Shown: positions 10,572 through 55,202 of the stretch, piece after piece
Layout: each line of letters opens with the position of its first letter
How positions within the stretch are numbered: the first letter of the stretch is position 1
Source: a virus
Taxonomy: Duplodnaviria > Heunggongvirae > Uroviricota > Caudoviricetes
Direction: 5' to 3' (one strand)
Virus record (IMG/VR): IMGVR_UViG_3300017917_003521
Length of the DNA stretch: 64,000 bases
The notes under the pieces: generated by a model
What the model saw: the letters and a program-made list of their open reading frames with translations, nothing else
Databases searched by the model: none
Told to the model about the DNA's origin: nothing
Program-made: the position numbers and the translations under genes

Positions 10572-10763
10572 ATGCTAGTAGTTAAAGTTGAAGGAAATAT
10601 GACAATTGAAAAAGCTCTTAAAACACTTAAAAGAAAGTGGGACAAAACAAAATCTATGAAAGAGCTTAGAGAAAGAAAAGAGTTCAAAAAGAGATCAGTT
10701 AAAAGACGTGATGAAATCACTAGAGCCGCTTATATTCAGAAGAAATATAGAAATAATGATTAA
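10572..10763 (+). CDS. rpsU: ribosomal protein bS21
   Basis: The sequence 'LVVKVEGNMTIEKALKTLKRKWDKTKSMKELRERKEFKKRSVKRRDE' aligns with bacterial S21 (MPVIKVRENE...FKR...ELRRREFYEKP...). Phage-encoded S21 is known from Bacteroidetes and Pelagibacter phages. Confidence 0.7.
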   Translation: MLVVKVEGNMTIEKALKTLKRKWDKTKSMKELRERKEFKKRSVKRRDEITRAAYIQKKYRNND

Positions 10764-11052
10764 AAAACTGCTTAGTTTATTTCCTAATCAAACTAATAAA
10801 ACATATGACTTAGGGAAATTACAAAAATCTGGTTTTATAAAAAATTTAGATGATTTATCTGCTTGTCCAAATTGTAAAAGTAAAGATATAATTTGGGAGT
10901 TCTTTATACCAACAGATGGTTCTAAAACAACTCAAGATAGTTTATCTATTTGTAGAGATTGTGGTTACAATGATAAAAGAGGTGCATTTGAAGAAACAAA
11001 TAAAGCCATTTTTAGACAACAAAAAATTAATCAAATATTAGATGGGATTTAA
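10708..11052 (+). CDS. zinc-ribbon protein
   Basis: Two Cys pairs, 'CPNCKSKD' and 'CRDCGYND'. Confidence 0.4.
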   Translation: MMKSLEPLIFRRNIEIMIKKLLSLFPNQTNKTYDLGKLQKSGFIKNLDDLSACPNCKSKDIIWEFFIPTDGSKTTQDSLSICRDCGYNDKRGAFEETNKAIFRQQKINQILDGI

Positions 11053-11257
11053 TAAAAGATTTATCAGTCGTAAAAATTTAGAAATAATAGCTGAACAAGG
11101 TTTAGATAGTTTGATTAATTATATAATTAAACCGGATGCTCTTATAATAGAGTCTGATGGTATTTCAGAAAAAGTTTGTGATATTGTAGGTAATACAAAA
11201 GATAAAAAAGAAATTAAGAAAAAATTAAAAGAAATAGGATTCTATGAATTTGAATAA
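11042..11257 (+). CDS. hypothetical protein
   Basis: 71-aa ORF. Confidence 0.35.
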   Translation: MGFNKRFISRKNLEIIAEQGLDSLINYIIKPDALIIESDGISEKVCDIVGNTKDKKEIKKKLKEIGFYEFE

Positions 11258-11954
11258 AAACTACTATAGTATTCTTGGTGTTAAAAATACCGATGATGAA
11301 AAGACTATTAAAAAAGCTTATTATAAATTATCATTCACTAACCACCCTGATAAAGGTGGTGATGCTATTCTTTTTAGTGAGATGACAGAAGCATACGATA
11401 TTCTTTGTAGTGATAATAGAAAAGACTATGATTTAAAAAGTAAATTTGGAAATAACTATAACGAATATTTTGAATTATTTGATGTAAATATTGATTTTGA
11501 TTTTGATAAAGAAAAGTCAAATTTTGAAAAGTTTAAAAAATATGAAGTTAATGATATATATGTAACCATTGATGACAATTTTAATGGTTCATTAGAATAT
11601 GAGAGATGGGTAAAATGTAAAACTTGTGATGGTACTGGAAAAGACTTATCTGCAAAAATTGTTATTAAAGATAATGATGGTAATATTTTAAGAACTTTTG
11701 ATGCTGATGATGGATGTGATTTTTGTGAGGGCTCTGGTAAAGACTATAAAGGAGAAACTTGTAATTTTTGTCAAGGAGCTGGCAAAGTAGGACTAACACC
11801 ATGTAAAAAGTGCAACGGTGAAAAAAGAATATTAGGTAAACAAAAATTATCTGGAATTAAGCTAACAGGTGATGAGACTAAAATAGAATCAATGGGTAAC
11901 TGTTCTAAAGATGTTGTAGGAATGGTTGGATCTCTTATTCTAAAGAGAGGTTAA
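11244..11954 (+). CDS. DnaJ-like co-chaperone (J domain with HPD plus CxxCxGxG zinc-finger repeats)
   Basis: 'YYSILGVKNTDDEKTIKKAYYKLSFTNHPDKGG' is a J-domain with the HPD motif. It is followed by 'CKTCDGTGKD', 'CDFCEGSGKD', 'CNFCQGAGK' and 'CKKCNGEKR'. Confidence 0.65.
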   Translation: MNLNKNYYSILGVKNTDDEKTIKKAYYKLSFTNHPDKGGDAILFSEMTEAYDILCSDNRKDYDLKSKFGNNYNEYFELFDVNIDFDFDKEKSNFEKFKKYEVNDIYVTIDDNFNGSLEYERWVKCKTCDGTGKDLSAKIVIKDNDGNILRTFDADDGCDFCEGSGKDYKGETCNFCQGAGKVGLTPCKKCNGEKRILGKQKLSGIKLTGDETKIESMGNCSKDVVGMVGSLILKRG

Positions 11955-12845
11955 TTCTAAAAATCTAGGAATTAAATTTTCAAATCCTCTTTTTTTACAA
12001 TTTTCAATTATATAATTTAAGAACCATTTAACATACTTTTCGTTATAAGTATCTGTATTTTTTCTTAAAAAAACCTTATCGTATCCAATATGATATATAT
12101 GATTATATGAATTTTGCCAATTCCATAAACCATCAACTTCTTCTGATTTATTCCAGCCTTTACCTGTATTAAAAGTACTTAGTAAAGTTTTCTGATTAAC
12201 ATTCATATCTATTGCTAGTTCTGCTAAGAATCTTTGTTCAATAAAATAAACACTATACTTATTTAAGTTTTTGTTTTCAACTGAACACTTTTTCATCCAA
12301 TTTATACCTATATTGGTATATTTATCTTTCAAATCTTTATTATTTAGATATACAAGACTTGCATTAAGTGGCATGTTTTTCCAATTTGAATCATAGTTTA
12401 TTTCATAGTCAGATATTATAATATCACTGTCCGTGTAACAGGATAATGATAAATCTTCTTTATATGATGTTACTAAATCATAATTAAATATATTCCAATC
12501 AGATATACTATCCCATATAAGAATATCACAATCAATAAATAAAAAAGGATTATTTAACTCTTTATAAACTCTTAGTTTAGAATTAGACCAAAATATAGAT
12601 TTATTTATACCAATATCACTTTTTAACAAGTCTGTATTTATTTCAGACCATGAATCTGATATATTATATTTATTTAATAACTCTAGTATTTTATCATCAG
12701 TGTAAAATATTAACGGTGTATTAGGATTTTTAATTTTCCATATATTAGCATTTAGCCACATTAATGCTAATTCATAACTTGTTAATTGCTGTGGATATGA
12801 ATCTTTTGTATAAGGTACACTTTCTAGAACTTGAATTCCTATCAT
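11940..12845 (-). CDS. putative glycosyltransferase (DxD-type nucleotide-sugar transferase fold)
   Basis: 'LIFYTDDKILELL' and 'FLFIDCDILIWDS' resemble the DxD motifs of GT-A-fold transferases. Assignment is weak. Confidence 0.3.
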   Translation of the reverse strand: MIGIQVLESVPYTKDSYPQQLTSYELALMWLNANIWKIKNPNTPLIFYTDDKILELLNKYNISDSWSEINTDLLKSDIGINKSIFWSNSKLRVYKELNNPFLFIDCDILIWDSISDWNIFNYDLVTSYKEDLSLSCYTDSDIIISDYEINYDSNWKNMPLNASLVYLNNKDLKDKYTNIGINWMKKCSVENKNLNKYSVYFIEQRFLAELAIDMNVNQKTLLSTFNTGKGWNKSEEVDGLWNWQNSYNHIYHIGYDKVFLRKNTDTYNEKYVKWFLNYIIENCKKRGFENLIPRFLELTSL

Positions 12846-12875
12846 TTAATTTTTATTAATAAATAATAAAAATGT

Positions 12876-15800
12876 TTAAGATTTTTCAAATTTAACATCT
12901 AAATTTGTATAATCAACCCAGTAGAATCCATCTTTAATTGATAAAGAATTTTCAAATTTAGTTCCTAACAATTCTTGTGCAATAACACCTCTAAATCTAT
13001 TTTTGTTATTAACATAATTCCACTCATAGATATTTATACCCATTAGACTTAATCCAACTTTCACAATATTTTCTTTCAATCTTATATCAGAGAAGCCGCC
13101 ACTTCCTACAGTTTCATTTGAGAAAAGAAAGTTAGTGTTATTTGTCTCATATAAAGCTGTATTACCAACACCAGCACCTACACCACCTACGCCTAATCCA
13201 ACACCACTAACTACGGTATTAGAATTTTGTGTACTTATACTGTCAAGGCCGATAGATATATTATTTATAAAACTAAAGTTTTCATTACTATAATCAATAA
13301 ATGGCGATATACCCTGGAATGGAACTTGAACTCCTTTATTTATATTATCTTCTGTGAAATATTGGAAGAAAGGAATCATATCAACTTCATAAAAATGTAA
13401 GTTATCTATGTAATACTCATTTTTAGTAGTAGTATTAGAACTTAAACCTTGGAAATTCATTGATAAGTTTCTCTTATTATAAAAATATTCCATTTTTTTC
13501 TTCTTATTAGTTGTTAAGTGATTTACGTTTTTATAAACTGGTAAATATGTAGCATCTGTTCTAAAGCTAAAAGTGAGTCCGGATAGACTTATACTTCTAT
13601 ATGTATAGTTTAAATTATCAAAATGTATAAATGGTGTATAAATAACTGCAAACTTTTTAGTAACATCAGTGTAAAGTGATGTGTTATTAGTAGAGTATGT
13701 AACTAGATCAAACTCTACTTTTGTGTATCTTAATTTTTTTATTTCCTCATTTGTTCTATTATTTACATCATCTGCAGGATTAGGAACTATATCTAATATA
13801 CCACCTCTACTCATTGATGTTACTTTTAATAGATTTCCTGTATCTTCTTCAGAGTTTGATGATACTCTCGAAAAATCTATAAATGTTGGAGAAACACTTG
13901 AGTATGTCCAACCTTGATTTAAAAATACATCACTATTAAAAGTAGATACAACTCCTGAGGTTAGTCCATAAAATGCAGTAAATACACCACCAAAATCATC
14001 TTCAAACAGACCAGCATCACCTATATAATCATCAAATATTTTATATTTTGTTCCTAATTTATATTTTCTTATAGTTGTTGAAAAACTATCTCTGAATGTT
14101 GATGAACTTTCAAGTACATCATTTGTTACATAACCATATAGGTTATTTTCAGAATAACTTCTCTTTGAAACAGAGTTTAATACACTTTGAGGTTTCCCTA
14201 TATTAGTTGCAGAGGTATTATCAAATACCACATCTAACCAAGAATTGTAAACAAATACAGCATTACTTTCAGCAGATACATTAGATGTTACTTTTGAAAT
14301 GTTATTTGATTTGAAATCTATATTTTGTATTAAACCTTTTGATAGATTAACTGTTATTTGACCACCTTCATTTAAACTATCGCTACCCCAATCTTGATCT
14401 ATTACTATTTGATACGGATTCACAACCTGTGTTACAATATGTTCACCATCATATTGTGGATTTACATCTTTGTCAGTCTTGTCAATAATTATCACATCAC
14501 CAACAGATAAACCGTGAGGTACACTATTTGTTCCAAATTGCAAACCAACAGAACCTGAACTGAATATAGTATCTACAAATGGTGGTACTGTATATTTTTG
14601 AGAATAGAAATGTCCACCATCAAATACACCATCTATCCAATGTGAGTTATACATTTCAGTTATCAAAGGATATCCTTTAAATAAACCGTAATTCCAAATA
14701 CCTTTAAAGTATCCATTTAAGAAACCACCAGATAACCAAACATTTTTTGTAACATATATTCTGTGATTATCAGAGTCTCTTTCAATTCTTCTTAAAGGAA
14801 AATTATTATCAAACTCAACAATAATACTATTTGTTGTTTTATTTATTATAGTGTAATATCCTTTTATAAGCTTTCTATCCTCATTAATATCTATTGATAC
14901 TATATTAGAAATTGAAACATTATCTCCGATATTGAATTTAGACACAGACGATTCTGGTCCAATAATTTGAACTCTCCATCTTTTAGATTTATTATAGTTA
15001 AAGAATAATGAAACATTTGTAAATTCATACATATTATCATCTACTCTCCATCCTGTATTCCAAACACCATTTTCCCATATACCTGCTTTAAATGAACCAT
15101 TTCCCATTTTTGAGTATATTTTACTAATACCTGGATTGTATAATGATGCGGTTGCATTTATAGTATTACCTGTTCCAACTAAAGTCGAGTATGCTACATT
15201 TGATAGACCGGTCGCTATTGAATATGTTGGTGCGTTACTCATAACATATTGTCTATTGTTTCCAGGATGGTATCCACCTTCTATTTTTATATTAGATAAA
15301 TATATAGAAGAATATGTAGGACTTGAAGATGTAGCACCAGCGAATCCACCAACAAATAATATGTATTTATTTCCTCTTAGACCATAAAATGCATGAGATA
15401 TAGAAGAAGTCAGAGATGTAGCACCAGTTGATGAAACACTTTGTGTTAATGTCGCTAGTAACGTAGCACCAGTTGGTGGTGTGTATACTCCAGATTGCAA
15501 AGCTACCCAGTCCGGATCAGATAAAACAGGTGCGTTTGATGTGTATATTCTCAATGGAAAGTTTCCATTATTTTGATAACCAAAAGAAATATTATAGTAT
15601 GTATAAGGTATGAATTTATATAAACCATTATTCAACCTATACCCTATTCTTGATGCTTTAGCACCGTTTGGACCACCAACAGGAAAATAACCTCTTACAC
15701 TAGCACTAGCACTAGTTGAAGGTGTTCCATAAACATAATCATACCAGTAGTATTTATCTGAGTTTTTGTCATAATACCAACCAAGTGAATTTTTAACACT

Positions 15801-16256
15801 GGGTAATAACTCTGTTCCAGTTTCTTTGTAGTATGAAAAACCTAATATATTAAAATCTAATTCATTTAGTTTAAAATCTGTTATACCTCTAATTCCACTA
15901 AATGTTCCATTAGCTTTGAATGTTGCTCTATTAGTTGATACTAAGTTTGTAGTTGGTGTTGAGTAGTGAAAAAAACTTTGAGTTCCCAATCCAGATGGTA
16001 CTGTGTTTGTAGATGTCATTCCTCTTGTATAACTCAACTCATCTGCCCAAGCTGGTGAAACAGAAAAAGATGCCGCATTTGCATACAAACCAACCGTATT
16101 AGTTACTATTTGATACGTTTTATTTGTTGAATAAGTATAAGAACCCGCATTATTATAAAGAGTGTAAATACCACCTACTATTGTACGAGTAGTATCTAAT
16201 TGTAGCCTGTTTGGTGAGGCTGTTAGTTTCCAATGATTATATCCTGACAGAGGCAT
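12876..16256 (-). CDS. tail fiber/spike protein with C-terminal intramolecular chaperone (peptidase S74-like) domain
   Basis: The 1126-aa protein ends '...FSDIRLKENIVKVGLSLMGINIYEWNY...GVIAQELL', matching the conserved SDxRxKxNI Ser-Lys dyad motif of phage fiber intramolecular chaperone domains. Confidence 0.6.
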   Translation of the reverse strand: MPLSGYNHWKLTASPNRLQLDTTRTIVGGIYTLYNNAGSYTYSTNKTYQIVTNTVGLYANAASFSVSPAWADELSYTRGMTSTNTVPSGLGTQSFFHYSTPTTNLVSTNRATFKANGTFSGIRGITDFKLNELDFNILGFSYYKETGTELLPSVKNSLGWYYDKNSDKYYWYDYVYGTPSTSASASVRGYFPVGGPNGAKASRIGYRLNNGLYKFIPYTYYNISFGYQNNGNFPLRIYTSNAPVLSDPDWVALQSGVYTPPTGATLLATLTQSVSSTGATSLTSSISHAFYGLRGNKYILFVGGFAGATSSSPTYSSIYLSNIKIEGGYHPGNNRQYVMSNAPTYSIATGLSNVAYSTLVGTGNTINATASLYNPGISKIYSKMGNGSFKAGIWENGVWNTGWRVDDNMYEFTNVSLFFNYNKSKRWRVQIIGPESSVSKFNIGDNVSISNIVSIDINEDRKLIKGYYTIINKTTNSIIVEFDNNFPLRRIERDSDNHRIYVTKNVWLSGGFLNGYFKGIWNYGLFKGYPLITEMYNSHWIDGVFDGGHFYSQKYTVPPFVDTIFSSGSVGLQFGTNSVPHGLSVGDVIIIDKTDKDVNPQYDGEHIVTQVVNPYQIVIDQDWGSDSLNEGGQITVNLSKGLIQNIDFKSNNISKVTSNVSAESNAVFVYNSWLDVVFDNTSATNIGKPQSVLNSVSKRSYSENNLYGYVTNDVLESSSTFRDSFSTTIRKYKLGTKYKIFDDYIGDAGLFEDDFGGVFTAFYGLTSGVVSTFNSDVFLNQGWTYSSVSPTFIDFSRVSSNSEEDTGNLLKVTSMSRGGILDIVPNPADDVNNRTNEEIKKLRYTKVEFDLVTYSTNNTSLYTDVTKKFAVIYTPFIHFDNLNYTYRSISLSGLTFSFRTDATYLPVYKNVNHLTTNKKKKMEYFYNKRNLSMNFQGLSSNTTTKNEYYIDNLHFYEVDMIPFFQYFTEDNINKGVQVPFQGISPFIDYSNENFSFINNISIGLDSISTQNSNTVVSGVGLGVGGVGAGVGNTALYETNNTNFLFSNETVGSGGFSDIRLKENIVKVGLSLMGINIYEWNYVNNKNRFRGVIAQELLGTKFENSLSIKDGFYWVDYTNLDVKFEKS

Positions 16257-16313
16257 CTACTTTTTTATTTTTTATTTTATATTTTATATATTTATAATTT
16301 CGTTTTACTACCT

Positions 16314-19300
16314 TTAAGCTTCTTCTACCGCTTCAAGACCTGGGTCTATAAGAGCTTCTCCAGCAACATAAGAGTATGGATTAAATCCAGAAGATGACCA
16401 TCCGTTTGTGCTTTGTGAGTTAGTTGGTATAACCTCAGCTACTGCTGACTTTATAGTAGTTTCTTCACCACCAGGAACTAAGAATATATTCCAAATATGA
16501 CATGAAGAAGTACCACTCCAAGACATACCTCTTTTTAAGATACTATAAACATAGTCACTGTCTACAATACCATCAAATTCAAATGATGATCCATACCAGT
16601 TACCGTTTCTCCATTTACCATTTTCCCAGAATACGTTAAATGCATTCATATATGATGCTATTCCGTTTTCCCATATCATACCAGTTGCCGTACCTATAAT
16701 AAAATTGCCATTTTTCCATCTTGAGATATAGAAATCACTTTGTTCAAGATCTCCATTTTGCCAATAACAAGTATTATCATTTATATTAAATGATTGAGTT
16801 GGTGATCCATTTCTTCTAACATAAGGATTAAACGAACTACTTATAAATTTACCTCTTTCGAATGCACCATCTAACCAAACAGAACTATTCATTTCACCAC
16901 TTGTGTGACTAAATGTACCTGATAACCAAAGAGCATTTGTAAATTTAGCTTTTTTAGGTGGTAAGTTAATCTTTTCTAAGGTGTTAGCTTTTACAATTTT
17001 TGTAAAAAACTTTTTATCTTTAATAAATTTATCCTTTGTATTTGTAAACATACCACTTCTCCACTTGCCCCAATAAGAATAAGTATATGAGTCTACAAAT
17101 GTATTAGCATTAGCACAAGTTAATCCTGAAACTGGATTTCCTCCACTTCCTTGAAACTCACCATATAAGAAAACACCATTATTCCAAACTCTTCCCTTGA
17201 ATATACCTCCGTTAAAGTCACCTGTGTACCATATTGAATTAGTTAAGCCATTTGCATTTCCAAATTCACCACCATTAAATGTTCCATTTTCCCAGCCATA
17301 ATCAACTTGATTTGTGCTATCACTAATAGACCAACCATATGATGATAAGAATTTACCACCATTGAATATACCATTTTTCCATTTAGCATTTGTTATAAAT
17401 TGACCACCATTAAATGTTCCATTTTCCCATATTGATGAGTGTGATAGTCCTTGATTTATATCAGAACCAAATAAACCATTTAAGAATAATCCATCTTTCC
17501 AAACTATACTTTGTGTTATATAACCTGAAGGACTTTGATTAATATCAACTGAGTAAATTGTTGCATTCTCTACTGTTGCATAACTTATTGTGCCGTTATA
17601 GAAGTGTGTATCAGTGGATGATATTTGATTACTACCAATTATACCATTTGAGTAAATACCATCATACCATTTAGAATAGTAGAATCTACCGTTAGAAAAA
17701 GTTCCTGATTCCCAATCTGATTTGAAAAACTCACCATTTAAGAATCTACCATTTTGCCAAGAATTTCTATTATTAGGTAATGTTCCTTTTCTGTAGTAAG
17801 AGTTTATATTTTCAGAATAGTAGAAAGGATTTGATGTGGTAGCCGAGCCGTTAAATGTTCTTGAATTATAGAATGTACCACCGTCAAAAATACCATCAAT
17901 CCATCTAGTATCTCTAATCGTACCTTTGCTAAATGTTGGACCATTCCATATAGAATTCTGAACTATACCTGAGTTCCAAGAGTCAGATCCTGTTACAAAG
18001 AAAGAATTTAAATATGTAGCATTTGATAAAATATTACCGTTATTTGAGAATATAGAATCAGATACTACTAGATTTCTTATTTTTTCTAAATTGTTAAAAT
18101 CTTTATCAAAGTAATCGTAATCTAAATTTTGAATTATAGAGTTACTGAAATAAGTTCTTCTTAAAAATCCAGATTTTACATTTGATTTACTTATTTTTAA
18201 TTTCTTTATATGACCATATCTATTCTCAGCTTTATCTGTATAAAAATAACCATTTGAAGCAGATAAACTTATTATCTGGCTATATGTTCCAACTTCTTGT
18301 AATTTATAAACACCATTTGTGTTAGATATAACCTTATAAGTATCAGGTATTCTATACAAATTCACACCATCATTAAAATCAACAGAATCTAAGAATACAA
18401 TATCTCCAACCTTGAATAGACTGGATTCTTTATAGTTAACATCATATGATGTAGTTGCTGTTAAATATAGATTTGAATCTATAGATAAACTATAACTACC
18501 ACCTGTTGTAAAAGGAACAGTTATATTATTATCGTTGTTTAATTCAATATGTGTTCCACCGTTCCAATCTGAATTTTCTATTAAGCCACTATCAAAGTCA
18601 GAATCAACTATAAATGCTTTTGATATATCAATTATATTAGAAACAGAATATGTAAAAGTAGAAGAATTATAATTAAAGTCTATGTTTTCACTAGTTATTA
18701 AAGAAGATGTATCAAATCTACTTACCCAAATATCTAAAGAATAGTGTGTACTATTAGGATTTTCAACATTTATTTTAGTATAAGTTCTTACTCCATTAAT
18801 TCCAAAAGATCCAGTTGCTGAATTAAATTTATATTTATTATCTTCTGGTGTAGACAAGAAAGCTGAATATTCATAACCTCTTTTACCTATTGGATTTAAT
18901 CCAAAATTCTCTTCAGTATATTCTGTCCAAGAACCAATTTTGAATTTTTTATCAAAAAAGTTAATAACATCTTTTGATAGATTATTTATTTTAAGACCCT
19001 TTAGATAAAAAACATCACCTGTTCTAAGTCTTTCATATCCAGTTTTATCAATATAAAACTTGAATACTTTTTGATCTATACTATTTGATGAACTAAATGT
19101 AAATCCATTAAGTATTGTCTCAGATGCAGTTAATTCATCATAAGCGTGTATCTTTATAAGATTATCACTATTATAACTTGAATTTTTAAAAACAGAACTA
19201 TTAAAGTATGAATTAATTGATTTTGTCTTTTCAAATTTAGAATTATTTGATTTTGTATTTTTTAACTCTGACTCTTTTAGATAAGAGTGATTAAATACAC

Positions 19301-28287: not shown

Positions 28288-28926
28288 ATGATAAAAGTTG
28301 GTCTCTCAGGTAATAGATATTCAGGAAAAGATGAAGTTTGTAATCAATTCCGCAGGATTTCTATTCCTGTATTTGAAGCTGATGTAGTTTTAAGATTTAT
28401 TATACATCATAATTTTGAAGTAAATAAAGAAATTAAATCTAGATTGAGTGAATTGTATGGTACATATGAAACTTATATTTCACCAGAGTTTGCAAAATCA
28501 AAAGAAGAAATTGACATTATTATACAATGTGCTCAAGATGAATTATTCAGAGCATATGAACAATTCTCAATAAAAAATAAATCATCAATTTATACAATAT
28601 TTAATTCATCTATACTTTATGAAACTAAATGGAATAAAGTTATGAATTATAATATCTCTGTCTTTGCTCCAAAGATTACAAGAATGGAGAGATTTCAAGA
28701 ACTTACTAAAAAGAAAGTATCAGATATTGCTTTCTTATTAAGAAATGAAATTGATGATTTAGATAAGAACAAAATGGCTAACTTTGTATTACATAGTTAT
28801 AGCGGCAGAGACGTAAAAAGACAAGTTCATGAAATAGACCAGTTTGTGATAGATTCATATCTTAGAATGGAACAAACAGACAAATTAACTCCAGATGGTA
28901 AAGGTATAATTTTAACACATTTTTAA
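28288..28926 (+). CDS. P-loop kinase, T4 gp1 dNMP-kinase-like
   Basis: N-terminal 'VGLSGNRYSGKDEV' resembles the 'G.KRSGKDT' loop of phage deoxynucleoside monophosphate kinases. Confidence 0.35.
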   Translation: MIKVGLSGNRYSGKDEVCNQFRRISIPVFEADVVLRFIIHHNFEVNKEIKSRLSELYGTYETYISPEFAKSKEEIDIIIQCAQDELFRAYEQFSIKNKSSIYTIFNSSILYETKWNKVMNYNISVFAPKITRMERFQELTKKKVSDIAFLLRNEIDDLDKNKMANFVLHSYSGRDVKRQVHEIDQFVIDSYLRMEQTDKLTPDGKGIILTHF

Positions 28927-29369
28927 TGAAAAATAAAATTAGAATTAAGTTAGTTTCACCAACTTCCAATAAGTTAGCATTTGTTAAACTTATTAAAGAT
29001 TGTAGTGATATGGGTTTGAAAGAGGCAAAAGATATTTGTGACTTTTTACATGCGAATCCTGGTGTTGTTAAAGAATTCGAAACTAGAAAAGTTGACTCTA
29101 ATGGTAATCATATAGACTTTAGAAAAAAGTTTGCTAATGATATCAAAAGTATTGATGGTAAATTTATTGTAAATGGTGGTTCTCAATGGGAGAGAGATGT
29201 AAAAATGCTAAAGCTTGGTATTGGTGACACATCTGACTATTGTGAGGTTATCAAAGAAAATATTTTAAATAGTTTGGATAATTCAGAAGAGCTACTTAAC
29301 TTTGTACTCTCGAAACTTTCTAAAAAAGAATTAGAAGAAGTTTTTAATAAAATCAATATAGAATTATAA
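28926..29369 (+). CDS. protein with N-terminal ribosomal protein bL12 C-terminal-domain-like module
   Basis: 'IKLVSPTSNKLAFVKLIKDCSDMGLKEAKDICDFLHANPGVVKEFETRKV' aligns with the bL12 CTD (FDVIL..[21 protein letters not shown]..VKE), including the hallmark GLKEAKD. Confidence 0.5.
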   Translation: MKNKIRIKLVSPTSNKLAFVKLIKDCSDMGLKEAKDICDFLHANPGVVKEFETRKVDSNGNHIDFRKKFANDIKSIDGKFIVNGGSQWERDVKMLKLGIGDTSDYCEVIKENILNSLDNSEELLNFVLSKLSKKELEEVFNKINIEL

Positions 29370-29765
29370 ATGGCAAACGCTTGGATACATTCAAAATCTT
29401 CTGCTCGTAAATACGGAGGAGAACCAGAAGATTATCTTAATATTCATATAAAAATGGATTGTTCAAAGGCTTATGTTGCTGATAACAGACACAGAGCATT
29501 AACACACACTAATTTTTGGATTCATGAGGTAATGATACCTATTTTTGGTTATACAATGACCAATTCGGCTGGAAGAGTCGTATCTGTCAAAGATATTTGT
29601 GAACAACACATACTTGAAGACTTTGGTATGAAGTTTATTCCTACCGCACAAGATTACATTGAAAACATGGAATTTAAAGACTGGATGCAAAATGGTATCA
29701 AAGGACATCCAACATCCTTTGACAAACTAGCAGAAAAAGGTAATATTAAAGTAAATTTAGACTAA
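29370..29765 (+). CDS. hypothetical protein
   Basis: 131-aa ORF whose start abuts the previous stop. Confidence 0.4.
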   Translation: MANAWIHSKSSARKYGGEPEDYLNIHIKMDCSKAYVADNRHRALTHTNFWIHEVMIPIFGYTMTNSAGRVVSVKDICEQHILEDFGMKFIPTAQDYIENMEFKDWMQNGIKGHPTSFDKLAEKGNIKVNLD

Positions 29766-35568: not shown

Positions 35569-36666
35569 TTAACCAACGGTCAAGAAGATTTTACGGGACA
35601 TTCTATCCACTGAAAGAACTTTCACTTTGATATCTTGTCCTTGTGAGAACCTTTTACCAAGTTTTTCCATTTCTGAAGTGTGGATAAGACCAACAGTTTC
35701 GTCATCAAGGTTCACTAAAGTGCCAAATGCTTTGGTGTCTTTAACAGTACCTTCAATGATTTGACCATTTTTAATTGTGTCCCACAGGGTCTCTCTCAAG
35801 ATTTGAGTAAGGATAATTTTATCCTTAATAACCTCTTTAATGTAGAATTCAATTTGGAATCCTGGTGAGATTGAAGATAACTTCTCAGCCCAGTCTGGAT
35901 TAACATTTGCTTTATGGATCATTCCAGTTAAGCACTCATTGAACTCAACAAAGACACCAAATGGAGTTGTACCGGTAACGTGACCACTGTACACTTTGTT
36001 GTACTCCAATTCCTTAATTGCTTCAGGAATTAAAGTTTGAAGATACTTACGTCTTGAAACGATATAAGTTCCTTCGTTTTGGGCATAAGATTCAATCATA
36101 ACATTGAATGTTTGTCCAACAATTGAGTTAGGATCGTGAAGCTTGTTAATACCAGCAAGTGTATTTGGCATAAAGCCTGGTAATGTTACACCACCGTGTG
36201 TTAACTCAACATCATAGCCAGCTGGGTTAAGACTCTTAACCGTAACCATTACTGATTGACCTTCTTCTAAGGATTTTAAGTTAGCGTGTGCTCTTGACTC
36301 ATATAGAGAAGAAACACTTCCTTTAATCATAAAATTATCTTGATTAATATCAGTGATTAATACATCAATTAAGTCACCTAAATTAAGGTTCTTGAAGTAC
36401 TTAGATTCACTAACTCTATCCTCTATTCTAACGTCATCTTTGTATCCTGGTACACTAAATATAAATTGGCCTGCTGACTTACCAACATATTTAGCAGATA
36501 CAACTTGACCTTTCTCAGGGATTGCAATTTCATCAAGGTTATAAAGCTTTAGCATTTCTTGATACTCTTTTGTGTTTTTGTTTCGAGTACCTTTTTTTGA
36601 AAATTTAACTTCTTCAAAGACGTCCATTAAATCTTCATTACCGATTGTGTTTTTTATCATATTCAT
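35569..36666 (-). CDS. ribosomal protein S1-like protein (four S1 RNA-binding domains)
   Basis: Repeated S1-type OB folds, e.g. 'GQVVSAKYVGKSAGQFIFSV' and 'GQIIEGTVKDTKAFGTLVNLDDETVGLIHTSEM...GQDIKVKVLSVDRMSRKIFLTV', parallel the S1 repeats (G.v.G.V....GaFV.l.....GLvH.Se). Confidence 0.55.
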   Translation of the reverse strand: MNMIKNTIGNEDLMDVFEEVKFSKKGTRNKNTKEYQEMLKLYNLDEIAIPEKGQVVSAKYVGKSAGQFIFSVPGYKDDVRIEDRVSESKYFKNLNLGDLIDVLITDINQDNFMIKGSVSSLYESRAHANLKSLEEGQSVMVTVKSLNPAGYDVELTHGGVTLPGFMPNTLAGINKLHDPNSIVGQTFNVMIESYAQNEGTYIVSRRKYLQTLIPEAIKELEYNKVYSGHVTGTTPFGVFVEFNECLTGMIHKANVNPDWAEKLSSISPGFQIEFYIKEVIKDKIILTQILRETLWDTIKNGQIIEGTVKDTKAFGTLVNLDDETVGLIHTSEMEKLGKRFSQGQDIKVKVLSVDRMSRKIFLTVG

Positions 36667-47326: not shown

Positions 47327-47329
47327 TTT

Positions 47330-48051: not shown

Positions 48052-48052
48052 T

Positions 48053-48807: not shown

Positions 48808-48841
48808 TGAATTAAAATTAAAATACCTATAAACAATAAAC

Positions 48842-49618
48842 ATGAATTACAATCCGGTCAAACAAACAAAAAATTATGAAAAAAACAACACAACAGAGCC
48901 AACTTTTGCTGATATATATAATATAAATTATTCGGGTGAGCAATCACCATTAAAGGCAAAAAACGGCAATATTGAGGATGAACTAATGACTCCTCAACCA
49001 AAAAATGAACGGCAAATTATGGAATCGAAGGCGATTTTATTTAGCGAACAAGAAAAAATCTTTAGAGAAAGAACGGGTAAGGATTTCTCTACACTTTACA
49101 CAAAGTATTACCCAAAATTAGTTTATTTTACTTCAAAAATTACTAATGACCCTCAAAAAGCCGAAGACATCTCAACAGACTCATTCATGGCGGCTTTTGA
49201 AAAAATTGAGAAATATGAAAAAGAAAAATCTCAATTTTCTACCTGGCTATTTACAATAGCAAAAAACTTAGCACTTCAAGATCTTAAAAGCGAAAAGAAA
49301 ACTATGTCTCTTGACATTGAGTTTGATGATGAAGGTACAACTATGAAAGACTTTATCCAAGAAGAGGATAATGACAATCATTTACATGAAATTCATGCTA
49401 AAAAGGCTGAGATCATGAAAAGACACATATCAAACCTGAAAAGTCCATATCGTGATGTTATTGAAATGAGAGAGCTTAAAAGAATGTCATATAAAGATAT
49501 TTCTGATAAATTAAATCTTAACCTATCAACTGTAAAATCTCAAATTAGAAATGGAAGAGCTATATTAGTTCGTGAAACTAAGAAAGAGTTTGATGCAATT
49601 GATGAAATGCTAATGTAA
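48842..49618 (+). CDS. sigma-70 family (ECF-like) RNA polymerase sigma factor
   Basis: Region-2-like 'AEDISTDSFMAAFEKIEKY...FSTWLFTIAKN' and region-4 HTH 'MRELKRMSYKDISDKLNLNLSTVKSQIRNGRAIL'. Confidence 0.65.
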   Translation: MNYNPVKQTKNYEKNNTTEPTFADIYNINYSGEQSPLKAKNGNIEDELMTPQPKNERQIMESKAILFSEQEKIFRERTGKDFSTLYTKYYPKLVYFTSKITNDPQKAEDISTDSFMAAFEKIEKYEKEKSQFSTWLFTIAKNLALQDLKSEKKTMSLDIEFDDEGTTMKDFIQEEDNDNHLHEIHAKKAEIMKRHISNLKSPYRDVIEMRELKRMSYKDISDKLNLNLSTVKSQIRNGRAILVRETKKEFDAIDEMLM

Positions 49619-50932
49619 ATGAACATAGAATCTTTAGGAAGACAGGCTATAGAAAGAATCAAATCTGAATGGGGTTTACCACTACATGGATTTGTTGCTG
49701 GTGGTGCCATAGCAAACATTGTTTGGGAATTGGTATCCGGCAATAAAGCAATTGTAAATGATATTGATATCTTTGTATTTGATGGTTTTGAAGAAAAACT
49801 AGACACTGAAAAGAAGTCGTTATTCAACTATCAAGAAAAAGAAACAAAGTATTATGAGGATTATGGTGGAATGAATTTTAGTAATTACACCAAAGATTTT
49901 TATTCTATAGTCGAGTCTGAAAGAGATGAAATGTTTAACACTATTAGATACAAGTCAAATACATCAGACCCATCTTTAATCATTAAGTCATTTGACATTA
50001 ACGCAACTAGAATTGGCTATGATATTGATAATGATAAATTATACTGGACTTCTGAGTTTGAAGAGTTTTTAAAGACTGGTGAACTAATGGTTTCTAATTT
50101 AATGACACCATCACATACAGCTGTTCGTATAGCTAAAAAATCTAAAGAGTTAAAAGCTAAACTCGATGAGTTTGAATTTAAATTGCTTCAATATGCTCTT
50201 TCTTATCGTTTTATAGACAGAATTAAACTAAGATTCAGAGAAAGATATTTAGAAATGTGTAGAGAACACAAAGATATATTATCTAACTATTTTCAACTTT
50301 CAAGAGATTTAGAAGCCGAAGATTTTGTAAAACAAAAAACTGGAGAAGATGTGGAACTTTATTATCTAGTCTCAATTGATAGTGAAAAAGAAGTAAAAGA
50401 GGTTTCTTTAGTTGGTGATTTTGAAAAACTTGTTTACAATAGTTTACCAAAGATTTTTCAAGATGATAATCTTAATAGAATATTTAAGTCAACTGATTTT
50501 CTTTTTTATATGAGGAACATCTATAATAAAGAAAAAAATATTAAAGACTTATGGTCTAAGCTATACTATTTCTTTGATAATGTTCATTATATAGACAGAG
50601 AGATAAGTAACGAAGATATGGAATTACTTGAAAGGTTTTCTAAATATGCTCCTGACTCTATTGAAAATCTAAAAGGATTAAAGATGTCAGAACAAATTGA
50701 TATTATCAAAAAGTTTTTAGACACTTTTAAAGAGGATCCACTTATAGCAATTTCAATCTTAGAAAGTGTTAAAGTAGATAAAGATATTATACTCGATGAG
50801 CAAACAATGTTATTACTAGAGCTCTCTGTTAGAAAAAAGATTATTAATGATACAAGAGGTAAAGTTAATAAAATACTTAACATTGAAGAAGTTGTAGATA
50901 AAAACAATAGTAATAATATTTGGGAATTCTAA
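49619..50932 (+). CDS. hypothetical protein (437 aa)
   Basis: ORF whose start abuts the sigma-factor stop (TAAATG). Confidence 0.45.
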   Translation: MNIESLGRQAIERIKSEWGLPLHGFVAGGAIANIVWELVSGNKAIVNDIDIFVFDGFEEKLDTEKKSLFNYQEKETKYYEDYGGMNFSNYTKDFYSIVESERDEMFNTIRYKSNTSDPSLIIKSFDINATRIGYDIDNDKLYWTSEFEEFLKTGELMVSNLMTPSHTAVRIAKKSKELKAKLDEFEFKLLQYALSYRFIDRIKLRFRERYLEMCREHKDILSNYFQLSRDLEAEDFVKQKTGEDVELYYLVSIDSEKEVKEVSLVGDFEKLVYNSLPKIFQDDNLNRIFKSTDFLFYMRNIYNKEKNIKDLWSKLYYFFDNVHYIDREISNEDMELLERFSKYAPDSIENLKGLKMSEQIDIIKKFLDTFKEDPLIAISILESVKVDKDIILDEQTMLLLELSVRKKIINDTRGKVNKILNIEEVVDKNNSNNIWEF

Positions 50933-50976
50933 ACATTTATAGAAAAAGTTAATATAAAATAAAAAATAAAAAGAAT

Positions 50977-51300
50977 ATGGTATCATATATTACTGAATTG
51001 AATGAGAACAACTATGATGAATTTGTAAGTGAAGGCATTGTTCTTGTTGACGTTTGGGCCACATGGTGTGGACCTTGTAAGGCAATCGCTCCGATAATCG
51101 ATCAAATATCTAATGAATATTTAGGTAAAATTAAAGTTGGTAAATGCGATGCTGATGCTAACAGAGATAAAGTTATGTCATTAGGTGTTAGAAACATTCC
51201 AACTTTATTCCTTTACAAAGATGGTCAAATAGTTGACCAAATGAGCGGTGGTGGCGCTAAGTCTAAATTTACTGATTTTATTGATAAACATTTAGCTTAA
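50977..51300 (+). CDS. trxA: thioredoxin
   Basis: Active site 'WATWCGPCK' and a thioredoxin-fold cis-Pro motif. Confidence 0.85.
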   Translation: MVSYITELNENNYDEFVSEGIVLVDVWATWCGPCKAIAPIIDQISNEYLGKIKVGKCDADANRDKVMSLGVRNIPTLFLYKDGQIVDQMSGGGAKSKFTDFIDKHLA

Positions 51301-51872
51301 TGTTATCTTACCAAGATATTTTAAATCTTATTAAAGAATCTGATTTCACACTTGTTGGTTATACCTTCAAGGATGAAAGAATTAAAGATGAATTACTTTC
51401 TAATTTTAACTATGTTGAGATTGAAAAAGTCAATTCGTCTTTTTCTTTTAAATCATTTTTAAGAGACCTTAAACTAGAATCTTTATTAGAAAATAAGTCT
51501 GTAAAAAATCCAGAGTATATTCTTTTAGATATTAATAATATAAGATTTGAAGAAAAGGATAGTTTAGGTGGTAGACAAAGAGTTATTAGAAGTTTTGTTG
51601 AAAATCTTAGAAGTCAATTATATACAGATTATTCTGAATTTCCTGGAAGTTCTCAATTTAAAGTTATTCTAACATCTTCTTTATATAGAAGTGGTGTAAA
51701 TTCTAATAATGATGGTATTAATAATTTCAGTGGGGGAAGTGGTCCAATTTATTCTTCTGATTTAGCTTTGACTATAATTGATAATAAGATTACAATAATC
51801 AAGAATAGATTTGGCAACAATGGTGATGAAATAGTATATAAATTTCAAGAAAATTTAACTACATTTGCATAA
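51300..51872 (+). CDS. hypothetical protein
   Basis: 190-aa ORF. Confidence 0.4.
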   Translation: MLSYQDILNLIKESDFTLVGYTFKDERIKDELLSNFNYVEIEKVNSSFSFKSFLRDLKLESLLENKSVKNPEYILLDINNIRFEEKDSLGGRQRVIRSFVENLRSQLYTDYSEFPGSSQFKVILTSSLYRSGVNSNNDGINNFSGGSGPIYSSDLALTIIDNKITIIKNRFGNNGDEIVYKFQENLTTFA

Positions 51873-52306
51873 TGAAAATTACAACAAATAGAAAAGCATA
51901 TTACGAGTATTTTGTGTTGGAAGAATTCAACGCAGGAATTATGCTATTAGGTAGTGAAGTTAAATCTATTCGTGATGGTAACGTAACCATTACAGACTGT
52001 TTTGCTTATATTTCAAATGGTGAAATTTTCGTAAAGAATATGAAAGTTGCTAAATACAAACAAACTCATATTTTTGAAAAGCATGATGAAAATCGTGATA
52101 AAAAAATTCTTCTTAATAGAAAAGAGATAGATAAAATAGAAAAACTTTTACAAGATAAAGGTACAACTATGGTTCCTTTAGAAATATTTACCTCACATAA
52201 TAGAATCAAAGTTAAGATTGGTGTTGTAAAAGGCAAGAAGCTATACGATAAAAGAGAAACTATTAAAAAGAGAGATATCGAAAGAGAAATCCGCCGTAGC
52301 GTCTAA
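51872..52306 (+). CDS. smpB: SsrA-binding protein SmpB
   Basis: 'NRKAYYEYFVLEEFNAGIMLLGSEVKSIRDGNVTITDCFAYISNGEIFVKNMKVAKY' matches the SmpB N-terminal core, and the C-terminal basic tail is present. Confidence 0.75.
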   Translation: MKITTNRKAYYEYFVLEEFNAGIMLLGSEVKSIRDGNVTITDCFAYISNGEIFVKNMKVAKYKQTHIFEKHDENRDKKILLNRKEIDKIEKLLQDKGTTMVPLEIFTSHNRIKVKIGVVKGKKLYDKRETIKKRDIEREIRRSV

Positions 52307-52309
52307 TAT

Positions 52310-52678
52310 ATGCCTCGTAAACCAAAAGATATTGGTCCTTTATTGGATAAGTTAAGTAACTCATTTACTGAAGAAGATATACTCAGTTGTCTTATAGAAC
52401 TTGTAAAAGGTTACGAACCATATAAATATAGAGAGATTATTTATAATAATCCATATTATAAATCTTTAATACCTGATATACAGATTGATATAATTAATAA
52501 TTTAGAAGACGTTAAAAAATCAATAGTTAAAGAAATTGATCAGATTGAGTCAGAACTTAAAAAGATTGGAAACAAAGATTCATCTGAGCAACTAAAAAAT
52601 CTTAAAAAAGATTGTTTATCATTGATATATGAAATAGATGAAAGGAAAAAAGAAATAGAAATGTTATCTAAGTATTGA
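52310..52678 (+). CDS. hypothetical protein
   Basis: 122-aa ORF. Confidence 0.4.
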   Translation: MPRKPKDIGPLLDKLSNSFTEEDILSCLIELVKGYEPYKYREIIYNNPYYKSLIPDIQIDIINNLEDVKKSIVKEIDQIESELKKIGNKDSSEQLKNLKKDCLSLIYEIDERKKEIEMLSKY

Positions 52679-54292
52679 ATCTACATATCTTTCTAAGTCT
52701 TTAAGTTTTACCATATTCTCAGCTGTTCTCTTATCACCTTCCTCATATGAGTTAATATAGTATTGAATATCCTCTGGATAATGAAATTCATTTATAATAC
52801 TTCTTAAAGTTCCTGAAATTTCAAACTCATTAGTTCTTGATATTTTAAGAATAGACTCTAATTTTATAAGAATCATTCTTAAATCTTGAATTGTTTCAAT
52901 TTTCTGATTTTTTAAGTATGTTAATATTTTTTCACTTATTTTATTTACAGATTTAAATTGTTCTTTTATCTCAGGCGAATCACACTTTTCAATTAAAGAA
53001 ATACACTTTTGATATCTATTCGTGTAATCCATACTATTAGAATATAATCTTTTATATCTACTCTTAGCTTGTTCTAGATAGTACTTTTTATCTTCTATTA
53101 ATTCACTTCTAATAGAATTATATAAATTACCTAATATATACTCAGTTTCTTCTAAATTAGGTCTTGATTTGAATATAGAGATAAAGGCAAACTTACCACA
53201 AACATTCTTTATAATAATATTTTGCAAATCTTTAATTTCAGCAGTATCTATATTTATAGTTTTAGAAACAACTTGTGTTAAATATCTTTCTATATTTTGA
53301 CTCTTTATTTGCTCATCAGACATTAAACCTAAGGCGCCTTCCTTAGACTCTTCTCTTCCTTTTTTTGTCAAAGAAACAGGAGTTAATCCGGATTTTAATA
53401 AATCATCTATAGTTAAAACAACAGCAAAATCGGCTTTATCTATATCTTCGCTACTGCTAATTGACCAATCATAATCACTCCAACTTCCATAAGTAAATCT
53501 TGAATTTGATGGTAAGTTATAGTCTAAAGGATTTTCTGAATTTTCTTTTTTAACTTCTAAACCTTCTACCTCAATTGGCTCATCGGATGGTATATAGATG
53601 TGTAATTTATGATGGTCGCTACCTGGTGAATGAACACTATCAAGTGACCAAGAATATCTAAACTTATCACCATCTAACCACTCTCTCCAATTTACATTAT
53701 CTACATCATAATCTGGTTCTCCTCCACCTGCAACATTTTGAATAGCAAATATTTGACTTCCATCTCTCCAAAGTTTAGCCATTGCTAATCTACTCATATC
53801 ATCTGAATCATCTGAAAAAATACCAAAAATAATTTGACCGTGTCTTAAATCTTCGTAATTCTTTAATGGTTTTAATAAACCTGTTTTGACACCTAAATCA
53901 TTCTTAATATAATCTAACTCTTGTGAACTGAAAATATCACCACCACTTCTCCTTCTTCTATCCATTGACTCTCTGTAGTTTATAACTTTATTACCAGTGA
54001 CAGTGAATCCTAAATATCCTTTCTCTATTGAAAACCAAAATTTAAGACAGTATATACCTTTTGAGTTATTCACTTCTTCGGTATTTTTAAGTTTTAATGC
54101 CTTGAATCTATTTACATACTTAACATTTTCATCTTTTATATCACTGATAGGTATATCAAGTTCCTGTTGCATCTTTAATAGTTTATTCTTAAATCTATCA
54201 ACCGATTGTTTATCTACTTTAGTTTTAAGATACTTAATAACTTTAGAAATTGTAGATGACTCAAAAGCCTCGTATAATTTTAGATATTTCAT
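52664..54292 (-). CDS. hypothetical protein (542 aa), MKYLKLYEAFESS N-terminal family
   Basis: N-terminal family motif on a long ORF. Confidence 0.45.
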   Translation of the reverse strand: MKYLKLYEAFESSTISKVIKYLKTKVDKQSVDRFKNKLLKMQQELDIPISDIKDENVKYVNRFKALKLKNTEEVNNSKGIYCLKFWFSIEKGYLGFTVTGNKVINYRESMDRRRRSGGDIFSSQELDYIKNDLGVKTGLLKPLKNYEDLRHGQIIFGIFSDDSDDMSRLAMAKLWRDGSQIFAIQNVAGGGEPDYDVDNVNWREWLDGDKFRYSWSLDSVHSPGSDHHKLHIYIPSDEPIEVEGLEVKKENSENPLDYNLPSNSRFTYGSWSDYDWSISSSEDIDKADFAVVLTIDDLLKSGLTPVSLTKKGREESKEGALGLMSDEQIKSQNIERYLTQVVSKTINIDTAEIKDLQNIIIKNVCGKFAFISIFKSRPNLEETEYILGNLYNSIRSELIEDKKYYLEQAKSRYKRLYSNSMDYTNRYQKCISLIEKCDSPEIKEQFKSVNKISEKILTYLKNQKIETIQDLRMILIKLESILKISRTNEFEISGTLRSIINEFHYPEDIQYYINSYEEGDKRTAENMVKLKDLERYVDSILR

Positions 54293-54311
54293 ATCATATA
54301 TATTAAAAATT

Positions 54312-54344
54312 ATTTGGTAAAATAAAACTTTATTACTACTTTTG
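54312..54344 (+). promoter_or_regulatory. Bacteroidetes-type promoter, copy of conserved ~42-bp element ATTTGGTAAA...TACTTTTGTATAA
   Basis: TTTG 54313-54316 and TACTTTTG 54337-54344 with a 20-nt spacer. The first downstream CDS is about 450 nt away. Confidence 0.5.
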
Positions 54345-54797
54345 TATAAGAATTAACCAAGTCATTAAGATAAGAGTCTTCAAAAGACAAGCTTTTTGCT
54401 TCACAGTTATGATATAATGAATAAAGTGTGAGTCTTAATGAAATTATGGTAGTAAGTAGGTGACAAATAAGTTAACACCCTTGTTAAAAATCACTGAACT
54501 ACCTCGTATTAATATACTATGATAAAAATGAAGGGTGTAGATATGAAATCGAGTTGGTGATAAATATCTCAATAACTAATGAATAAACCCAACTCAAAGA
54601 AGATTTTACCGAGCAGAATGGTAACACTGCTCAACCAAGGCGATGAGCCATTAAAAGGTAATCCTAAGTGATGAGGTCACTAAAAGTCAAGTTCCAGGTT
54701 ACACATTGTAATTTGGGTAGAGGTTCTCGGATTCCGACCATTCTTGACAGAAGTTCCAAACTCTTCTTTTTAATTGAAATTTATTAAAAAACAAAAT

Positions 54798-55202
54798 ATG
54801 ACACTGAAAGAAAAAATTAATGCTGACTTTATGACAGCATTTAAGTCAAAGAACATGGTAGCAAAGAGTATCCTTTCTGTTGTAAAGGGTGAGATTCAAA
54901 CTGTTGAGAAAAACACTGGTTCAGATAATCTTTCAGATGCTGAGGTAACTAAGATCCTAACAAAAACTGTTAAGTCTCTTAAAGAAACTATTGCTCTGGC
55001 AAATGATGAAAAATCTAAACTTGAATTAGAAGTTCTTGAGGTATATCTACCAAAACAAATGTCCAAGGAAGAAGTTACTTCTAAGGTAAATGAGTTAGTT
55101 GGTTTAGGTATCACTCAAATCGGTGCTATTATGAAGGAGTTTGCTTCATTACCAGCTGATAAAAAAATGGTTTCAGAAGTTATCAAAGAAGTTATCAAAT
55201 AA
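54798..55202 (+). CDS. GatB/YqeY-domain protein
   Basis: 'MTLKEKINADFMTAFKSKNMVAKSILSVVKGEIQ' matches the YqeY N-terminus. The start is set at the internal ATG of track ORF 54774-55202. Confidence 0.55.
   Translation: MTLKEKINADFMTAFKSKNMVAKSILSVVKGEIQTVEKNTGSDNLSDAEVTKILTKTVKSLKETIALANDEKSKLELEVLEVYLPKQMSKEEVTSKVNELVGLGITQIGAIMKEFASLPADKKMVSEVIKEVIK

Follow-up and report, generated by a model that had tools for sequence, protein, structure and literature searches.

Translation-related genes and structurally unusual tRNAs in a 64 kb segment of a huge phage genome assigned to the Mahaphage clade

The 64,000-nucleotide stretch of viral DNA analyzed here (IMG/VR record IMGVR_UViG_3300017917_003521, hereafter the window) encodes five translation-related proteins, namely the ribosomal protein bS21, a four-domain bS1-like protein, a protein with the fold of the bL12 C-terminal domain (CTD), SmpB and a YqeY-like protein, and these are followed by an array of 16 tRNA and tRNA-like genes (Table 1). 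The combination of the five genes is rare among phages at large, yet by sequence comparison it is typical of the clade to which the window is assigned. It has already been published in kind, in related huge phages that share both the genes and their order, and the newest material is the anatomy of the tRNAs and the architecture of the L12-CTD protein, which lacks the stalk anchor. Taken together, the window is probably best explained as a segment of a Bacteroidota Mahaphage genome that carries a clade-typical, vertically conserved translation set, the products of which would remodel host ribosomes in the steps proposed below.

A preceding reading of the DNA from its letters alone (the sequence-only reading) had proposed the five open reading frames (ORFs), all of which are present at the positions listed in Table 1. 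Its assignments withstood hidden Markov model (HMM) and structure searches, none of which failed to support the bL12-CTD, S1 or SmpB calls; matches of bS21, SmpB and the YqeY-like protein to PF01165, PF01668 and PF09424, respectively, all lie above the cut-offs, and the S1 and bL12-CTD calls are borne out by the profile matches, models and fold searches described below. Its overall interpretation is partly supported: the domain assignments, the phage origin and the rarity of the set hold, whereas the set is not a new combination, the L12-like protein cannot work through the ribosomal stalk in the normal way and SmpB has no phage-encoded partner RNA in the window or in the closest complete genome.

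Phage of origin and distribution of the gene set

Among 50,697 phage records, megablast identified only LR745206.1, LR756502.1 and LR756504.1, which are uncultured phages of 634-642 kb, as relatives of the window. Over parts of its length, the window DNA is ~74% identical to LR745206.1 (634,780 bp) and LR756502.1 (642,428 bp), and it represents a genome distinct from both. Genomes larger than 634 kb have been placed in the Mahaphage clade, for which Bacteroidetes are the predicted hosts (Al-Shayeb et al., 2020; PMC7162821). Because of its close relationship to, and synteny with, genomes that the same study places in this clade, we assign the window to a huge phage of the Mahaphage clade with Bacteroidota as its predicted hosts.

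Homologues of all five proteins were found by tblastn in only two of the 50,697 records, LR745206.1 and LR756502.1, which are the closest relatives of the window. The five genes have the same order and orientation in both (tblastn, rechecked locally), a similar tRNA array then follows and the proteins are 34-71% identical to their counterparts. The sequence-only reading had described the combination as much rarer than phage bS21 itself; the two records bear out the rarity, whereas the set is not new, being syntenic in both relatives and published in kind. Indeed, S1, S21, L7/L12, SmpB and transfer-messenger RNA (tmRNA) have been named among the genes of huge phages, with the proposal that host translation is thereby redirected (Al-Shayeb et al., 2020; PMC7162821). 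PHROGs contains existing families for four of the five proteins. Among the NCBIfam models, bS21 and SmpB exceed the equivalog cut-offs, whereas the S1-like and L12-like proteins score far below theirs.

Table 1. Positions of the translation-related genes, their neighbors and the tRNA genes in the window.
Feature	Position	Strand	Evidence and remarks
bS21 homologue, 63 aa, Bacteroidia type	10572..10763	+	PF01165, TIGR00030, match to solved structure
CoaE-like (dephospho-CoA kinase family) gene	28288..28926	+	PF01121, E = 1.6e-10; stop overlaps start of L12-like gene
L12-like protein, 147 aa: bL12-CTD-like fold (aa 4-82) and four-helix C-terminal domain (aa 87-146)	28926..29369	+	PF00542, AlphaFold2, Foldseek
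DUF6915 gene, directly downstream of L12-like gene	29370..29765	+	PF21866, E = 2e-36; phrog_8143
bS1-like protein, 365 aa, S1/OB domains at ~55-117, 138-204, 226-288 and 303-364	35569..36666	-	PF00575, AlphaFold2, Foldseek
SmpB neighborhood: sigma factor, 437-aa nucleotidyltransferase-like protein, thioredoxin, orf190, SmpB, orf122, orf542 (-)	48842..54292	.	Pfam, synteny
SmpB, 144 aa, full length including C-terminal tail	51872..52306	+	PF01668, NF003843, solved SmpB structures
YqeY-like (GatB/YqeY domain) protein	54798..55202	+	PF09424, phrog_1460, solved YqeY; ~870 nt upstream of tRNA array
Array of 16 tRNA and tRNA-like genes	56071..58441	+	ARAGORN, Rfam, relaxed scans, direct reading, folds
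Irregular tRNA-like gene with His (GUG) anticodon loop	56071-56158	+	Enlarged D region, extended acceptor/T branch
Trp-anticodon (CCA) tRNA with long variable arm	56402-56484	+	Minimum-free-energy (MFE) fold; canonical tRNATrp adjoins at 56499-56570
Lys-anticodon tRNAs (UUU, UUU, CUU) with A73 and long variable arm	56740-56827, 56833-56917, 56922-57007	+	MFE folds: cloverleaf plus variable arm
Endonuclease-like ORF with helix-turn-helix (HTH) and HNH motif, within tRNA array	57093..57641	+	HTH matches in Pfam; CxxC...HH motif in translation
Four tandem Ser tRNAs (UGA, UGA, GCU, GGA) with long variable arms	58085..58441	+	MFE folds

bS21 and the bS1-like protein

The bS21 homologue scores 40.9 bits against PF01165 (cut-off 27) and 31.3 bits against TIGR00030 (cut-off 28.95). 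Its best solved relative is bS21 of Flavobacterium johnsoniae (7jil_z), with which residues 1-57 align without gaps and with retention of Tyr54. In Bacteroidetes bS21, this tyrosine is reported to stack on the sequestered anti-Shine-Dalgarno tail of 16S rRNA (PMC9723584), and bS21 is reported to stabilize bS1 on the ribosome (PMC10123108). The gene is flanked on one side by that of a 501-residue protein with C-terminal CxxCxGxG-like zinc-finger repeats and no Pfam match (8995-10500, minus strand) and on the other by a DnaJ homologue comprising a J domain and a zinc-finger region (11244-11954, plus strand).

The bS1-like protein matches PF00575 with E = 8e-21, with just two of its repeats individually significant, and its AlphaFold2 model consists of four OB barrels. 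The top Foldseek match of the model is E. coli bS1 on the 30S subunit (9gut_B, E = 5e-22). Residues 16-363 align to the bS1 models of NCBIfam and are collinear with bS1 domains 1-4 from the N-terminus. At E <= 1e-10 the protein has 2,392 relatives, of which the best 120 listed share a length of ~360 residues and are 69-96% identical. The gene is also found in genomes of 735, 636 and 462 kb and partly in Lak phages.

The L12-CTD-like protein

The match of the L12-like protein to PF00542 is marginal (27.3 bits with a cut-off of 25.9) and covers positions 3-43 of the 67 in the profile. The AlphaFold2 model, obtained with the family alignment, has a pLDDT of 78 and displays a beta-alpha-alpha-beta-alpha-beta domain followed by four helices. 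Foldseek returned bL12 CTDs as the best solved-structure matches, with ClpS next. The family comprises 56 clusters of 112-209 residues (nearly all 144-167), which share the same architecture throughout and are conserved over their full length; members occur on contigs of up to 481 kb, and the exact protein of the window is found on a 205-kb metagenomic contig. A search of 1.84 billion representative proteins recovered the C-terminal helical domain only in this same architecture, in proteins of ~132-157 residues, besides shorter fragments.

Eight residues that are invariant in the family (Lys16, Val20, Lys21, Ile23, Lys24, Gly30, Leu31 and Lys35) align with Lys65, Ile69, Lys70, Val72, Arg73, Gly79, Leu80 and Lys84 of E. 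coli bL12, respectively. Helices 4 and 5 of bL12 are described as the face that binds translational GTPases (Kothe, 2004, as cited in PMC12548414). Since the GTPase-binding surface of these helices is kept and the stalk anchor is absent, the protein most likely binds its factors away from the stalk.

The gene lies in a tight run with the CoaE-like and DUF6915 genes (28288-29765, plus strand), in which the stops and starts overlap or abut and which is conserved in relatives. The adjacency of the CoaE-like and L12-like genes is retained in the related loci L001, L002 and L010, and the DUF6915 gene adjoins the L12-like gene in L002 and L010, whereas L001 has no DUF6915 match.

Do the S1-like and L12-like proteins act on the ribosome?

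Several observations weigh against a ribosomal role for these two proteins. S1 domains are RNA-binding modules that are found everywhere. The S1-like protein scores 94-122 bits against bS1 equivalogs with cut-offs that span 368-918 bits (94.5 against 577 for TIGR00717, rpsA, and 122.3 against 624 for the best model). For huge phages, the ubiquity of these domains has been noted to make a genuine rpS1 difficult to confirm (Al-Shayeb et al., 2020; PMC7162821). In E. coli, bS1 docks on uS2 via an N-terminal helix with Phe5 and Phe9 (PMC10123108); the S1-like protein has a predicted short helix at residues 11-17 with a pLDDT of ~36, Phe17 is its sole invariant phenylalanine and a leucine occupies the position equivalent to Phe5. 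The L12-like protein likewise fails the bL12 equivalog, reaching 24 bits against a cut-off of 84.4 for TIGR00855 and matching positions 58-101 alone. No bL12 N-terminal domain was found in it (no PF16320 match at E <= 1), and a permuted bL12 was rejected, as the C-terminal domain aligned to a profile of the bL12 N-terminal domain, built from N-terminal sequences entered by hand, with an hhalign probability of 0.5%. The Foldseek comparison also shows that ClpS shares the fold of the CTD-like domain, and ClpS is a known structural neighbor of the bL12 CTD.

One or both proteins could accordingly act elsewhere, the S1-like protein in mRNA decay or transcription, as a cofactor, or more generally as an RNA chaperone, and the L12-like protein as a ClpS-like adaptor or as a partner of the CoaE-like or DUF6915 proteins. 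The distance from the equivalog cut-offs, the proximity of ClpS in the fold search and the conserved arrangement with the CoaE-like and DUF6915 genes would fit such roles. Nevertheless, we regard this explanation as unlikely: the S1-like protein is collinear with bS1 from the N-terminus and finds its top structural matches in bS1 on the 30S subunit, the L12-like family retains the helix 4/5 residues that match the factor-binding face of bL12, and ClpS has no sequence match to the L12-like protein, for which the sequence HMM matches are to L12 alone. Action of both proteins on translation therefore remains the preferred reading, with one restriction. The sequence-only reading had envisaged factor recruitment through the bL12 CTD; as the protein has no bL12 N-terminal domain, a canonical placement on the ribosomal stalk is impossible, and this part of the proposal falls.

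SmpB and its partner RNA

SmpB matches the whole of the PF01668 profile with 178 bits and exceeds two equivalog cut-offs (178.4 bits against 130 for NF003843 and 170.9 against 119.1 for TIGR00086). Residues 3-142 align to solved SmpB structures, a region that takes in the GKK.YDKR motif and the basic tail, and the C-terminal tail is conserved, GKKLYDKRETIKKRDIEREIRR being aligned with GKKKYDKREAIKKREMERKIRE of 7ljp_A. SmpB is 63-88% identical in all eight related contigs that cover the block around it; the 735-kb genome and all fifteen Lak records encode it too. Many other 'phage' SmpB matches lie at record ends and resemble host genes beside prophage attachment sites.

Ribosome rescue via SmpB had been part of the sequence-only reading. 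The complete protein with its tail agrees with this, whereas no phage tmRNA was found to accompany it: ARAGORN and Rfam searches of the window and of the complete LR745206.1 genome were negative for tmRNA, and none was found in nine related loci. A 'tmRNAp' reported in the window by a relaxed ARAGORN search was disregarded as implausible, as it overlaps real tRNAs. Host tmRNA is accordingly presumed to be the partner of the phage SmpB.

The phage SmpB might instead titrate or redirect host tmRNA, so that the tagging and degradation of phage proteins are blocked, or it might sense host stress. With host tmRNA as the only possible partner and with phages proposed to use tmRNA to sense the state of the host (Al-Shayeb et al., 2020; PMC7162821), such uses have some appeal. 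We nonetheless consider them quite improbable, as SmpB is complete and has the conserved C-terminal tail that the protein requires to work on the ribosome; its degree of conservation across the eight contigs fits a working factor and a decoy equally well. A working SmpB that would act with host tmRNA is the preferred reading.

The YqeY-like protein

The start codon of the YqeY-like gene (ATG at 54798) lies inside an ORF that opens at a TTG at 54774. The protein scores 59.7 bits against PF09424 (cut-off 27), covering profile positions 1-142 of 143, and matches the solved YqeY structures 1ng6 and 8xje. A YqeY-type domain binds tRNA, and the tRNA array follows the YqeY-like gene in eight of nine related loci (the exception being L008). 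The GlnRS of Deinococcus radiodurans carries a YqeY domain attached to its anticodon-binding domain, and GatB contains a YqeY domain as well (PMC1865053); yqeY is located just downstream of rpsU in some bacteria (PMC13374519). A tRNA-related role has to be set against the fact that the cellular role of YqeY itself is poorly characterized (PMC13374519).

The tRNA array

Default ARAGORN reports ten tRNAs and Rfam at the gathering score reports 11; the remainder of the 16 came from searches with relaxed settings, inspection of the sequence itself and folds, which add the four tandem Ser tRNAs, the irregular gene with a His anticodon and one interrupted tRNA. The order of the array is irregular His-like, Phe, His, Phe, Trp (long variable arm), Trp, Lys, three Lys (long variable arm), interrupted tRNA, Arg and four Ser. 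The sequence-only reading came close in its count of about 17 tRNAs, but had included them in the interval 10572-55202, outside which the array lies.

A short variable loop is the norm for Lys tRNAs, and a canonical tRNALys is found at 56658-56731, just upstream of the three Lys tRNAs with a long variable arm. Eighteen homologues of the latter, from seven related phage genomes, also fold as a cloverleaf plus a variable arm; compensatory changes are seen at 19 of the 23 pairs, and the anticodon loop (CTYTTAA) is invariant. The long-armed Trp tRNA has a homologue in L003 at ~15060-15143, in which the stem of the variable arm is compensated. A literature search of incomplete coverage found no description of phage tRNAs that combine a Lys or Trp anticodon with a long variable arm.

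None of the four Ser tRNAs is found by default ARAGORN, the Rfam search at the gathering score reports only that at 58174-58256 (29.7 bits), and they give sub-threshold matches to the tRNA-Sec model. In MFE folds, the Ser tRNAs that start at 58085, 58262 and 58355 have an 8-bp acceptor stem, a 4-bp T stem and a long D stem, and that at 58174 folds as a 7/5 cloverleaf. The 8/4 shape of tRNASer is known from phage tRNA clusters (Mukai et al., 2017; PMC5389517). The irregular His-like gene is conserved in L003 and L005, and L001 and L002 have an equivalent gene of normal size.

ARAGORN reports 59 tRNAs in the whole genome of LR745206.1, among them Arg(UCU) of 90 nt, Asn(GUU) of 87 nt, Gln(UUG) of 82 nt and Pro(AGG) of 90 nt, together with Leu tRNAs of only 74-76 nt. 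These odd sizes suggest that the length of the variable arm is uncoupled from anticodon identity in this clade.

As a possible role, which we put forward tentatively and consider doubtful, the class-II-shaped Lys (UUU, CUU) and Trp (CCA) tRNAs, the 8/4 Ser tRNAs and the irregular His-like tRNA might form a structurally deviant set that keeps decoding going when anticodon nucleases or other tRNA-directed defenses hit host tRNAs, tRNALys especially, and that would be serviced by the YqeY-like protein, SmpB and the off-stalk L12-CTD protein.

The array also contains the endonuclease-like ORF, which is present in only some relatives. The interrupted tRNA (57650-57780) directly follows this ORF; its 5' and 3' halves are ~50-65 nt apart, and ARAGORN in intron mode reads it as Glu(UUC) interrupted by an insert of 48 nt. 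Next to the tRNA blocks, two intergenic stretches (~55900-56065 and ~57880-57996, plus strand) end in terminator-like hairpins, and the second weakly matches the Bacteroides small RNA BTnc005, its 23 bits falling well short of the gathering score. Rfam also detects a GOLLD RNA (RF02032, 287 bits) among the tRNA genes of LR745206.1 at ~420,875-421,280 (L018 25875-26280) and none in the window. The DUF805b RNA motif (RF02914) is above the gathering score in both published relatives (L002 8751-8785 and L011 17639-17673) and has no match in the window.

Gene content, composition and retention of the gene set

The other ORFs of the window are phage-like and include a tail fiber with a chaperone domain, a collagen-repeat protein, a primase, LigA, an SbcC-like ATPase and a sigma factor; further ORFs encode DnaJ, Sir2, Dam, thioredoxin and peptidases (Pfam and PHROG scans). 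The same scans identified no terminase or major capsid gene among the window ORFs and no additional translation genes in ~40 further ORFs. The order of the block that runs from the sigma factor through SmpB to orf542, the YqeY-like gene and the tRNA array is the same, and the block is largely intact, in eight related contigs of 75-642 kb. A CCA-adding role for the 437-residue nucleotidyltransferase-like protein near SmpB was considered and is unsupported, its sole match (NTP_transf_6) being sub-threshold.

The G+C content is uniform at ~28-32% across the genes. A Shine-Dalgarno-like four-base core precedes only four of 62 genes, and the leaders are A/T-rich; Shine-Dalgarno sequences are rare in phages with a putative rpS1 (Al-Shayeb et al., 2020; PMC7162821). 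The 62 genes end in TAA (54), TGA (six) or TAG (two), with no sign of stop-codon recoding among them. AAA and AAG together make up 8.3% of the window codons, and the genetic code is taken to be standard because the lysines that they encode align with lysines of cellular homologues.

That the translation genes play no role in the phage, being either passengers recently taken from a host or contamination of the assembly, is very improbable: bS21 and SmpB are near enough to cellular proteins to pass equivalog thresholds and many database 'phage' SmpBs are host genes at prophage ends, but host contamination is rejected by the synteny of the five divergent genes in two complete phage genomes, by the SmpB-YqeY block in eight contigs, by the uniform G+C content and by the phage genes on either side. 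Synteny combined with protein identities of only 34-88% argues for long vertical retention.

Proposed mechanism and significance

We infer from the domain content that the window proteins would remodel host ribosomes, and every functional step given here is conditional in that sense. Phage bS21 and the S1-like protein would act at the platform of the 30S subunit, where bS21 and bS1 neighbor each other, and would favor initiation on the A/U-rich leaders of the phage, which lack Shine-Dalgarno sequences. SmpB, acting with host tmRNA, would keep ribosomes from remaining stalled, and the tRNA array, together with the YqeY-like protein, may support the decoding of an AT-rich genome that is rich in Lys, Ser and Phe codons. 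For the L12-CTD-like protein, which is soluble, off-stalk binding to EF-Tu, EF-G, IF2 or RF3, as a decoy or an adaptor, appears the most likely activity.

The window confirms that the largest known phages of Bacteroidota, hosts in which ribosomes start without Shine-Dalgarno pairing, pass on their translation genes stably as an entire block. The bS21 with Tyr54, the four-domain bS1-like protein and the stalk-less L12-CTD protein offer concrete test constructs for the viral retooling of such ribosomes.

Comparison with known systems

The closest known systems are the Mahaphage genomes LR745206.1 and LR756502.1 (Al-Shayeb et al., 2020), which resemble the window in the five genes, their order and orientation and the downstream tRNA array. 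The architecture of the L12-like protein and the shapes of the tRNAs, which are treated here, were not dissected in that study, and tmRNA, which it lists among the genes of huge phages (PMC7162821), was not found in LR745206.1.

The freshwater Bacteroidetes phages that carry bS21 (Chen et al., 2022; PMC9723584) likewise mimic Bacteroidetes bS21 and have an aromatic residue at position 54. For these phages and for viral ribosomal proteins in general (Mizuno et al., 2019, as cited in PMC7162821), the proposed role is substitution into host ribosomes. Their genomes are at most 331 kb in size and their bS21 gene lies among structural genes (PMC9723584), whereas that of the window lies between the genes of the zinc-finger-repeat protein and DnaJ and is accompanied by the S1, SmpB, YqeY and L12-CTD genes.

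The S1-like protein shares with bS1 the tandem S1 repeats, collinearity over domains 1-4 and the best structural matches. E. coli bS1 has six domains; the window protein has four, preceded by ~50 extra N-terminal residues before domain 1. The L12-like protein differs from bL12 in a similar way: bL12 has an N-terminal domain for dimerization and bL10 binding and a flexible hinge, whereas the window protein has no such domain and carries at its C-terminus a four-helix domain, which is confined to this family of ~132-160-residue proteins. Stand-alone bL12-CTD proteins of other phages (for example, A0A077KTD1 of Ralstonia phage RSJ5 and that of the crAss-like phage cr126_1) have the CTD fold in common with it, and their helices 4 and 5 likewise contain the conserved GLKEAKD region.

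Three of the four Ser tRNAs fit the (8/4) tRNASer of Mukai et al. (2017; PMC5389517). Precedents for a class-II shape with anticodons that are neither Leu nor Ser are provided by allo-tRNAs (PMC5389517) and by the nev-tRNAs of nematodes (PMC3333845). Set against these systems and the (8/4) tRNAHis (PMC5389517), the Lys- and Trp-anticodon tRNAs of the window differ in having a normal 7/5 acceptor branch, A73 and a long variable arm together.

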